Below are positions 33,273 to 35,643 of a DNA stretch of 64,000 bases, piece after piece (position 1 is the stretch's first letter; every line of letters begins with the position of its first letter). The translations under genes were made by a program, and so were the position numbers. Below the pieces are notes generated by a model. The model made no database searches and was not told the origin of the DNA. It saw only the letters and a list, made by a program, of their open reading frames with translations. The stretch is from a virus. The DNA is taken from the IMG/VR virus record IMGVR_UViG_3300042475_005534, positions 24,124-88,123 of that record. One strand, written 5' to 3'.

Positions 33273-33704
33273 TCAGGAGGGCGGAAGACAGATCACACGA
33301 AAGCCGATGTAGTCGTCGGTATAGCCGGGCAGGTCAATGCCGCGGTGAGCCAAGCGGCGGTCTGAGGGGAGACTGTCCCAGCCGCCGCCGCGCAATACCG
33401 CCCGGCATGGTGCTTCTTCCTGGGGGAGGCACACCACGCGAAACCCGATGACGTCGTTGGCATAGCCGGGCTGGTCGCGGTAGCGGTAGACCGAGCGGCA
33501 GTTCCTGGGGAAGTTGAACCAGGAGCCACCGCGCATTGACAAGTCGCAGCGTGCGGTGGAGGCCCCTGGAGGGACGCACACCACGCGGAAACCGATGTTG
33601 TCGATTGGCTCGCCGGGTTCTCCGGGAAAGCGATGGGCAGAGCGGCAATGCCTAAGGAAGAAGTCCCAGGGACCGCCGCGTAACGCCCGATTGGGGATCG
33701 TCAT
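33273..33704 (-). CDS. protein made of 3 tandem DGR-VR-like units (RGG.W...CRS..R...GFRV)
   Basis: Starts [8 protein letters not shown], ATGA-coupled; three units of the FGE/CLec C-terminal motif. Confidence 0.7.
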   Translation of the reverse strand: [143 protein letters not shown]

Positions 33705-34153
33705 GGTGTCATCCCCCGCGGAAGACAGATCACACGAAAGCCGAGGTCGTAGTCGGCATAGTCGGGCGAATGGGAAATGCCGCGACAGGTCGAGCGGCAC
33801 CAGGGGTAGCTGAGCTGGGCGTGGGAGCCGCCGCGCATGGTTACCTGCGTGGGCTTGACCCCCAGAGGGAGGCACACCACGCGGAAGCCCAAGCCGCTGC
33901 TGGCATAGCCGGGCTGGAAGCGTCCGAAGCCGCGGCAGGCCGAGCGGCAGAACCCGGGGTTGTTGCCCCAGGAGCCACCGCGCAGTGGCGGTAGCATCCG
34001 AGGTGGTGCCACCTCCCGAGGGAGGCACACCACGCGGAAACCGACGAGATCGTCTTGGTAGTGCGGAGCGGCGCGTCGGTAGGACAAGCGTAAATACGCC
34101 TGTTGTTCCGTCCTGAAAAACCAAGTACCGCCGCGTTGCACTTGATACGTCAT
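33701..34153 (-). CDS. protein made of 3 tandem DGR-VR-like units
   Basis: RGGTW/RGGSW/RGGSH ... GFRVVC x3; ATGA-coupled at both ends. Confidence 0.7.
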   Translation of the reverse strand: [150 protein letters not shown]

Positions 34154-34554
34154 GACCTGCTCAGCAGGAGGAGCAGGTCAGAGCGGCGAGCTCGGGAGAC
34201 CTTGTTGCCGCGGTGCCCCCGCTCGCGAGCCAGGGCACGCAGCTGGGACACATTGAGGCTGAGGTCGATTCCATTGAGAGCGCAGCGGAAGGCTGTTAGC
34301 TCCGGGTCTTCTGTAATGGGCACAGAGAGAGTCATAGGAGGGATGGATTGGGGTTCAGGGGGAGTGAGGCCGAGGAGGTGGAGATGGAGGGCTGCTAGCT
34401 GCTGGCTGCGCTCTTCCAGGGCAAGACGCAGCTGGCCGCCGGCGGCGTAGGAGGCGTCGGCAAGATGCCAGAGCAGGGCAATAGCAATGCAGAAAAAAGG
34501 GGCGGCTTGATGCATGAAATGTCGAAGCCGGCCCCCAATCAGATCGGAATGCAT
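34150..34554 (-). CDS. hypothetical protein with hydrophobic segment and C-terminal Rho-N-like motif
   Basis: LNVSQLRALARERG...RARRSDLL. Confidence 0.55.
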   Translation of the reverse strand: MHSDLIGGRLRHFMHQAAPFFCIAIALLWHLADASYAAGGQLRLALEERSQQLAALHLHLLGLTPPEPQSIPPMTLSVPITEDPELTAFRCALNGIDLSLNVSQLRALARERGHRGNKVSRARRSDLLLLLSRS

Positions 34555-34564
34555 GGGCAGGGAA

Positions 34565-35284
34565 TCAATAGGGCCTGTATTCGTTGCGGCACCACTCGAA
34601 GACCTGGCCGTGCATGTCGTAGAGGCCCCAGGCATTGGGTTGGTACTGCTTGACATCGCAGGTGGAATCTGCGTTGAAGCGTGCCTGGGACTCATCGAGG
34701 GTGTCACCGAAAGCGAATTCAGTGGTGGTGCCTGCGCGGCAGGCGTATTCCCACTGTTCTTCTGTGGGGAGGGTGTAGGTCTTACCTGTAGCCCGGCTGA
34801 GGCGGGCACAGAATTCCATGGCGTCATACCAGGAGACGCATTCGACGGGGCGGTCATCGCCCTTGAAGCGTGAGGGATCGGGATTGAGATCGCGCTCGAC
34901 CTTGGGCAGGTTCTCGGCGACCCATCGCCACTGGGCTTGAGTGGTCGGAGTTTCCGCCATCTCAAAGCCCTCGTCGATGATCACCTCATGGACCGGCTTC
35001 TCATCAGAGAAAGCGGACGGTGAATCAGATCCCATCATGAAGCGCCCTGGAGCGATGGAAACCATCGGCAGGTTGAGGGCGGAAGCGGAGATGCTGTGAT
35101 TGGAGGTAGTCATGGTTCCTGAAGAAATGGAAGATGGATGGAGGAGGCGGCAGGGGCGAATCCCGATGATGGGGAGGGCGCAGGCCTTGTTGACGCTGCC
35201 CCGGAGGGTGGCACGGCAGTTGCGTGGTTCGTCACTGATCCAGGAGCCACCGCGCAGCTGCCGATGGGCGTCAAGGGCTGTCAT
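34565..35284 (-). CDS. FGE-sulfatase / C-type-lectin-fold protein, C-terminally truncated or circularly permuted
   Basis: MV.I.PG.F.MGS, E.PVHEV, TQAQW, PVE.VSW.DA.EFC, LPTE.QWEYACRAG, PNAWGLYDMHG..FEWC then stop; RGGSW unit at the N-terminus. Confidence 0.85.
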   Translation of the reverse strand: MTALDAHRQLRGGSWISDEPRNCRATLRGSVNKACALPIIGIRPCRLLHPSSISSGTMTTSNHSISASALNLPMVSIAPGRFMMGSDSPSAFSDEKPVHEVIIDEGFEMAETPTTQAQWRWVAENLPKVERDLNPDPSRFKGDDRPVECVSWYDAMEFCARLSRATGKTYTLPTEEQWEYACRAGTTTEFAFGDTLDESQARFNADSTCDVKQYQPNAWGLYDMHGQVFEWCRNEYRPY

Positions 35285-35643
35285 GGCGCCACCTCCCGAG
35301 AGAGGCGGACCACACGAAAGCCGAGGCCGTAGCCGCGGTAGCTACCGACGGGCGGGTCGTCTTCGCGGAAGGCCGAGCGGCAATAGCTGGGAGCTTCGTC
35401 CCAGCCGCCGCCGCGCAGCACCGCCCGGCATGGTGCCACTTCCCGAGGGAGGCGCACCACGCGAAACCCGACGTCGGTAAGGTTTCCCTCTTCGCCTAAG
35501 ACGGCCTCACTTAGCTCTGCCTCGTGGCGGCCAGCCGAACGGCAGGTATAGGAGGCTTCGCCATAGGAACCACCGCGAATGGAGTTTCCCAGGGAAAGCG
35601 GTAAATCAAGAGACAGTAGAAAAGGGGACAAGCGATAACCCAT
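35281..35643 (-). CDS. protein made of 2 tandem DGR-VR-like units
   Basis: RGGSY...CRSA...GFRVV and RGGGW...CRSA...GFRVV. Confidence 0.7.
   Translation of the reverse strand: [120 protein letters not shown]

Follow-up and report, generated by a model that had tools for sequence, protein, structure and literature searches.

An array of diversity-generating-retroelement variable regions matching cyanobacterial templates in a phage genome that lacks a reverse transcriptase

Passages of PMC7517822, PMC8144416, PMC10907252, PMC5758913 and bioRxiv 10.1101/2024.11.15.621889 report the trans activity of diversity-generating retroelements (DGRs) within one genome. They describe variable regions (VRs) diversified in trans by cellular (clade 5/cyanobacterial) DGRs in Thiohalocapsa PB-PSB1 (PMC10907252), and remote targets in Treponema denticola and cyanobacteria (PMC5758913, PMC7517822); such targets are argued, in one passage, not to be expected to travel with phages or phage-associated DGRs (PMC5758913). 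Targets in tandem appear in the same passages, as three C-type-lectin (CLec) domains in VMAP systems (PMC10907252) and as a single target with three FGE-sulfatase domains (PMC5758913). Parts of this literature propose cellular DGR targets as antigen sensors, with WD40 and TIR domains in putative conflict systems. Full-text searches and the passages named above yielded no description of VR arrays that match host templates in phages devoid of a reverse transcriptase (RT). The locus described here is such an array. It occupies positions 33273-35643 of a stretch of 64,000 nucleotides (nt), hereafter the window, which corresponds to bases 24124-88123 of the 88,123-bp IMG/VR record IMGVR_UViG_3300042475_005534, a record with direct terminal repeats that is rated 100% complete. 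Nine short units surround an FGE/CLec gene; each copies a Cyanobium-type template repeat (TR) with mutagenesis at the adenines. The reading that I favour, with a probability of about 0.6, is writing of these units across genomes by a DGR of host type, followed by recombination at the level of the unit, which multiplies and shuffles them.

The nine RGGSW...GFRV units are distributed 2+1+3+3 over four open reading frames (ORFs A, B, C and D) of the minus strand, as a sequence-only reading of this DNA had counted them. The features of the locus, in order along the minus strand, are:

35281-35643, minus strand: ORF A, 120 amino acids (aa), two VR-type units, matching Pfam FGE-sulfatase at positions 214-255 only
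35449-35577, minus strand: unit A1, in ORF A
35302-35415, minus strand: unit A2, in ORF A
34565-35284, minus strand: ORF B, 239 aa, with a degenerate N-terminal unit, then a linker containing an internal Met57, then an FGE/CLec core
35144-35254, minus strand: N-terminal unit of ORF B, degenerate
34574-35065, minus strand: FGE/CLec core of ORF B, the chain ending in ...EWCRNEYRPY and a stop
34150-34554, minus strand: ORF X, 134 aa, family not known, its ATG 13 nt past the ORF B stop
33701-34153, minus strand: ORF C, 150 aa, three units, an ATGA overlap at each end
34022-34135, minus strand: unit C1, in ORF C
33869-33982, minus strand: unit C2, in ORF C
33722-33835, minus strand: unit C3, in ORF C
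33273-33704, minus strand: ORF D, 143 aa, three units
33573-33680, minus strand: unit D1, in ORF D
33426-33533, minus strand: unit D2, in ORF D
33285-33392, minus strand: unit D3, in ORF D

The ORF coordinates bear out the ATGA joins that had been reported at 33701, 34150 and 35281: the overlaps connect A to B (35281-35284), X to C (34150-34153) and C to D (33701-33704). The ORFs are therefore joined as claimed at these three places, but the gap between B and C holds ORF X, which had been missed. A unit size of ~40 aa had been given; this is right for the unit core (34-43 aa), but the repeat period, linkers included, is about 47-54 aa. A ninth unit does stand at the N-terminus of ORF B, but it is degenerate and ends in GIRPC instead of GFRVV. 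Comparison with the FGE-sulfatase profile, a check that had been proposed, places ORFs A, C and D on its last ~40 positions only (about 214-255); the match of the ORF B core spans 5-194 of the 255 positions of PF03781 (E 2.5e-41). No single chain here holds the full PF03781 domain, the 207-255 segment being found N-terminal to the ORF B core and in the other ORFs; a full FGE domain in one chain is present in L007 and in host proteins. The palindrome CCTCCC-N2-GGGAGG follows many units. Promoter-like sites (0) and terminator-like sites (3) show no excess over shuffled sequence.

A protein search with ORF D returned many metagenome proteins of 2-4 units together with ORFs that are translated cyanobacterial DGR TRs, such as P0036 (Egbenema) and P0056 (a Leptolyngbyaceae metagenome-assembled genome, where the C-terminus of the RT is followed by the TR). 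A scan of species-genome contigs with P0036 as the query left 80 loci, from which 72 TR-like segments were recovered. The templates that fit the phage units best are TRs of Cyanobium, Synechococcaceae and Prochlorococcaceae genomes, several of which bear 'Rohwer_bin' lake-series labels in their record titles. In all, 25 units were examined from the window, from the near-identical phage L004 and from the related viruses L005 and L006. Twelve of them have the exact TR length and were scored ungapped against the TR of locus L054, while the other 13 have indels and were scored only by gapped alignment, each against its best TR.

In the 12 ungapped units, 187 of 300 adenine sites are mismatched, versus 128 of 996 non-adenine sites (Fisher p 9e-62; by template base, C 62/504, G 29/300 and T 37/192). 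The distribution within codons is informative. The ten AAY codons are mismatched at 148/240 of positions 1-2 and at only 10/120 of position 3; in the other codons, mismatches affect 67/312 of third positions and 51/564 of non-A first or second positions; lone template adenines are mismatched in 39 of 60 cases. Sparing of the third base of AAY codons points to adenine-directed mutagenesis and not to selection on residues. For the window's nine units taken together, the mismatches to cyanobacterial TRs are 144/237 at A sites versus 134/731 at non-A sites, and all nine have an A-site excess (per-unit Fisher p from 0.01 to 9e-10), the TR having been picked for each unit by lowest non-A mismatch, a choice that favours the signal. 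Unit C2 differs from the TR of L048 at 18/26 A sites and 6/82 non-A sites, and D2 from that of L054 at 12/25 and 6/83, D2 also retaining the template's odd AGG codon, a TAT from its AAT, and CCCCCAGG at the 3' end. Unit C1 was judged old (16/27 A-site versus 24/81 non-A mismatches). The units keep GTGTGCCTCCC. The sequence-only reading had taken the units for variable regions of DGR type within the FGE/CLec fold. The concentration of their mismatches at the adenines of Cyanobium-type TRs upholds this.

That reading had also reported neither RT nor TR, which holds for the whole 88,123-bp record. RVT_1 (reverse transcriptase) has no match there at E<=1, and neither do the two Avd profiles, PF05635 (23S_rRNA_IVP) and PF22296 (bAvd), in the complete genome; RVT_1 has no match either in four related viral contigs, which are 60-98% complete. 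The FGE profile, run on the whole genome, gave 3 matches from 8 candidates, all inside the array, so that the phage has no template repeat of its own. No unit with at least 8 Asn was present in any phage locus examined. A template of this type is part of a genuine cellular DGR in a cultured Cyanobium. On a 195-kb contig of Cyanobium sp. FGCU6 (L069), a WD40+FGE target is followed by bAvd, RVT_1, the TR and an FGE target, with a TIR+FGE target at a greater distance; one of these FGCU6 targets shares 41% identity with the ORF B core. Candidate hosts thus do hold matching TRs, those of Cyanobium/Synechococcaceae, which the units follow except at adenines, and the suggestion that the units are targets of a host or remote DGR fits these data.

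Host loci have features of their own around the homologous segments. Downstream of the host VRs (L048, L049, L054, L055, L059 and L069) lies a conserved element of ~75 nt with repeated GGCTGTT motifs, which includes ...CTTAACCCTTAATCC...CTCGGCTGTTTCTTAACCCTGGCTGTTGG..., and the host TRs share a 3' region distinct from it; it is possible that these are target-recognition and RNA elements. A host-like flank after D3 (CAACAC...TTTCTYAACCC) was considered and dropped, its score of 17 being matched in 216 of 2000 shuffles past the stop and reached by 685 of 2000 when the unit tail was included.

Freshwater picocyanobacteria (Cyanobium/Synechococcaceae) are the likely host group. The phage encodes a terminase, a virion structural protein and a helicase-primase, among other phage functions. 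The 758-aa virion structural protein (PHROG 20475) is 42% identical to its counterpart in Synechococcus phage S-EIVl, which was the sole match to it in 50,697 phage records searched and is the closest isolate. The stretch occurs in 24 listed sequencing runs, all of them lake water metagenomes and none listed as an RNA run, and the TR-like letters at D2 occur in 8-11 other contigs per lake run.

The composition of the units in related viruses bears on how template sequence reached the phage gene. L005 has an ORF B that is 82% identical and, by blastn against 31000-38500 of the window, no other match outside the FGE gene and units; its units differ from templates at 3, 8, 3 and 6 of about 83 non-A sites. 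In L006, the units have 65% GC, in a locus of 48% and with a core of 51%; in L088, the corresponding values are 68%, 46% and 53%. Unit 2 of L006 has 1/83 non-A versus 15/25 A-site mismatches, and unit 1 of L088 has 3/83 versus 16/25. In both viruses, the limits of the GC-rich tract, CTGCTGCGCGGC at its start and a point inside GCCTCCC at its end, coincide with those of the homology between TR and VR in host loci. A phage-resident gene with host-template composition only in its variable patch is what rewriting mediated by complementary DNA (cDNA) predicts.

The window and L004 are 95-99% identical in the flanks, in ORF B (N-terminal unit included) and in X, versus about 40-65% in array A and in arrays C/D, and the edges are sharp. 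Unit counts are 2+1+4+2 in L004 and 2+1+3+3 in the window; some units have clear orthologues, C3 corresponding to the last unit in L004, P0006, P0011 and P0013, others have been replaced, and the metagenome proteins P0002-P0015 contain shuffled units. Within the window, a near-identical stretch of ~45 nt is common to the A1/A2 junction (35420-35475, minus strand) and the D2/D3 junction (33390-33445, minus strand), which links arrays A and D by duplication across the FGE gene. Lake strains were compared through Logan contigs from four runs (X2, X8, X18 and X24). Run X2 reproduces the window exactly. A 10.9-kb contig of X8 covers 33100-35160 with 26 differences, the 20 listed all being in X or the FGE gene; for a contig of X18 the count is 12, 10 of them listed in these same two genes. 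The main-strain contigs of X8, X18 and X24 end at 35160; in X18 and X24, a contig carries on beyond this point with other sequence, a D2-like unit included. Array A differs between strains (35284-35647, without cover in X18 and X24, was left out of the evidence). Joints between units were also seen in lake contigs, for example from 34044 to 33469 in three runs, although these joints were placed at a likeness of 80% and call for caution. The arrays therefore turn over by gain, loss and chimera formation of whole units while neighbouring genes stay 95-99% identical. The suggestion that units are swapped by recombination is in keeping with this, since their order and number vary between near-identical phages and between lake strains, as does the comparison of relatives that had been called for (window versus L004, and the shuffled metagenome proteins). 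At the level of contigs, in which rare variants do not show, arrays C/D are nearly fixed across three runs and array A differs between strains.

The stop after EWCxNEYxPY is kept in the window, L004, L005, L088 and P0075-P0078, and one or more in-frame N-terminal units precede the core in all of L004, L005, L088 and P0075-P0078; the 283-aa protein of L088 has two such units and no unit past the core. The N-terminal units of close relatives vary at VR-like positions. The sequence-only reading had proposed a library of pre-diversified loops detached from a truncated scaffold. This is not supported in that form: the conserved stop, the N-terminal unit and L088 argue for a product made of unit(s) plus core, and not for a broken gene awaiting complementation in trans. 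The conserved protein is probably ORF B itself, in which the core comes after the N-terminal VR unit(s). Of the best homologues of ORF B, 120 in number, classified by core motif and some short ones perhaps cut by contig ends, the order core-then-unit is found in 83; one to four N-terminal units are found in 21, 12 of which have no C-terminal unit; of the remaining ones, 10 are devoid of units, 1 carries two units at the C-terminus and 5 lack the core motif. The metagenome loci L094, L101 and L150 contain three or four complete core+unit FGE domains in tandem in one frame, and a unit-then-core piece could descend from such a tandem-domain protein. The ends of the chain are close together in C-type-lectin folds, and ORF B is predicted to be, possibly, a circularly permuted lectin-type binder. 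Among solved structures, those nearest in sequence to its core are PvdO (5HHA) and TvpA (2Y3C), a variable protein of Treponema; I take both to be non-catalytic. The compact FGE/CLec gene of the phage lineage is related to the DGR target domains of the host.

The scheme that I propose for the origin of the array starts in a DGR-bearing host cell, where adenine-mutagenised cDNA from the host TR would be copied into phage DNA, entering either by true retrohoming or by way of the homologous, conserved ends CTGCGCGGCGGCTCCTGG and GGNTTYCGYGTGGTSTGCCTCCC. The same ends would then serve recombination that duplicates, deletes and reshuffles the units, which would yield the runs of small ATGA-coupled ORFs. 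Several observations weigh against this scheme. Most of the window's units look old, with 6-24 non-A mismatches each (11-24 in 7 of the 9). The phage units lack the conserved ~75-nt element that host VRs have downstream, and past GCCTCCC they diverge from both TR and host VR; if this element is needed for homing, the units would be poor targets. A 3' end particular to this lineage, CGCGTGGTGTGCCTCCC, is common to the units of the window and of L004; for it, an exact-pattern search of 185,579 species genomes gave no match and a TR-style pattern search of JGI metagenome contigs gave no TR carrying it. A 3' end not found outside the lineage fits propagation within the phage lineage and not fresh writing. 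In the contigs of three lake runs, arrays C/D are nearly fixed; rare variants are invisible in contigs, however, so that this near-fixation says nothing on low-level diversification. The Phage_integrase profile has no match in the complete genome, and any homing would therefore be confined to lytic infection. The host is itself inferred, from the structural-protein match, the lake samples and the template type. Lastly, host VR DNA would be an equally good donor, which sequence alone cannot distinguish from cDNA.

This last point is the basis of an alternative in which the units were copied from diversified host VR DNA by ordinary recombination during infection, with no entry of cDNA. At sites other than adenines, host VRs too are identical to the TR, and the adenine signature would fit such a transfer equally well; the homology of the ORF B core to host targets (41% identity) moreover implies host-to-phage transfer at least once. 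It is nevertheless unlikely that the units arose in this way. The flanks of host VRs, namely the GPSLNP tail and the 75-nt element, are found in 0 of the 25 units examined, and the GC-rich tract of L006 and L088 is TR-sized and lies within AT-rich, phage-specific linkers, next to a core that is phage-like in composition. A fossil origin, in which an ancestral phage-borne DGR lost its RT, Avd and TR and left arrays that decay with no present source of variation, would account for the 11-24 non-A mismatches of seven of the window's units, for the near-fixation of C/D across lake samples and for the failure to find a TR with the phage-type 3' end in species genomes or metagenome contigs. I consider it very unlikely: RT is found in none of five related viral records, the window's included and four of them incomplete, units of L005, L006 and L088 match cellular TRs with 1-3 mismatches at 83 non-A sites, and one matching genome is that of a cultured Cyanobium, where the DGR lies among WD40 and TIR genes.

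The remaining alternative concerns function and supposes a split lectin, in which the products of the mini-ORFs dock in trans on a tip-less FGE core and confer many specificities. Each of the nine units does lie in an open frame, the ORFs begin with ATG and are coupled by ATGA, and the junctions recur in relatives (three ATGA couplings in L004, one in L005). The break between the core ORF and the following units recurs as well, in the +1 frame in the window, L004 and L005 and in the -1 frame in L006. However, ORF B has an in-frame unit of its own, L088 has no post-core units, the mini-ORFs hold 2-3 units each and not one, and units stand out of frame within the long ORFs of P0081, P0084 and P0085. 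Other frames are also open in this GC-rich stretch, for example a 283-aa ORF at 33273-34124, which makes the openness of the mini-ORFs weak evidence of function. I regard obligatory docking in trans as highly improbable. In the preferred reading, writing by a host-type DGR followed by recombination of units, the extra mini-ORFs (A, C and D) are more probably cassettes in reserve or out of use, open to recombination, than obligatory subunits.

A programmed frameshift joining the core to the next units was also considered and judged unlikely, because the direction varies (+1 in the window and L005, -1 in L006) and L088 has nothing to join. In the long ORFs of P0081, P0084 and P0085, one or two units that follow the core and precede the last unit are out of frame; these misread units are Ala/Pro/Ser/Thr-rich, CAAAPG... 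being frame-shifted LRGGSW. The poor ESM Atlas model of ORF D (pLDDT 0.57, pTM 0.25) also speaks against functional mini-ORFs.

ORF X stands in place of the first post-core unit. Its first 10 residues, MHSDLIGGRL, are the start of the post-core unit ORF in relatives (P0009, P0005), and the rest is an insert. Post-core units of all close relatives begin at their own ATG (MHSDL...), and in the window and L004 the insert takes over this ORF after ten residues. Between the window and L004, X is conserved at 95-99% identity; L005 and L088 lack it. By eye only, its C-terminus (LNVSQLRALARERGHRGNKVSRARRSDLL) has a helix-extension-helix/SAP-type likeness, and in P0005 the middle of X (MTLSVPIAEDPELTAFR) is fused directly to units. 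That X might be an intron or a known RNA was not sustained, Rfam at E<=0.1 over 32500-36500 giving only a sub-threshold match to CC2171. This match to the Caulobacter small RNA, at 36340-36496 on the plus strand, scores 28.5 bits versus a gathering score of 75 and is probably due to chance.

The array gene sits among leftward genes of no assigned function, outside any recognised tail module. The gene upstream of the array (35676-36335, minus strand) contains an Ala/Trp/Asp-rich repeat block (AAWAAWDAARDAA...), which varies in sequence and length between the window (219 aa) and L004 (5316-5960, 214 aa), the rest of the protein being conserved. Farther away, at 8208-9947 on the minus strand, residues 17-578 of a 579-aa ORF match a dCTP deaminase PHROG, with matches to HNH endonucleases at about 260-454 in the middle, which suggests an intein or an inserted homing endonuclease. 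The array DNA has no match in the 'phages' collection, and a second viral scan with ORF D as the query found no relative.

A complete phage genome without RT, carrying nine VRs stamped by a host-type template, contrasts with the view of DGRs as acting within their own genome. If host DGR cDNA does enter phage DNA, a virus would be tied, across genomes, to a hypermutation system of bacteria, which would bear on who gains from DGRs in phage-host conflict. Orphan VRs would then be a possible marker for host prediction, and metagenomic DGR surveys that require an RT beside the VR would have missed such loci. A bolder conjecture, which I hold to be quite unlikely, is that cyanophages outsource hypermutation: the host DGR would rewrite VR cassettes during infection for a stripped-down permuted or split lectin, the products serving as decoys or blockers that track the WD40/TIR lectin sensors of the host, for which an antiviral role has been proposed, with the mini-ORFs as a store of tips.

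The closest parallel is with the cellular DGRs that act on remote targets. There, too, FGE-type CLec VRs lie far from the RT and match an AAC-rich TR at non-adenine sites, and the FGCU6 host targets bear WD40 and TIR domains; unlike them, the phage VRs are on the replicon of another organism, an RT-less phage of lytic type, and are arrayed without cores. The DGR of Bordetella phage BPP-1 likewise acts on a phage CLec-fold gene with an adenine-mutagenised variable region, but it has its own RT (brt), Avd and TR beside a single mtd VR with an initiation-of-mutagenic-homing (IMH) site and hairpin, whereas none of RT, Avd and TR is present here. With tandem CLec/FGE targets, the array has in common several VR segments per locus, and the unit-then-core junction is natural in L094, L101 and L150; it differs in having no cores between units, with nine units, one core and four ORFs. 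Neisseria pilS/pilE and the R64 shufflon store variable-end segments of a binding protein that are recombined at conserved borders. By contrast with such silent cassettes and shufflons, the phage units all lie on one strand, with no recombinase or inversion, and their frames are open as if translated.

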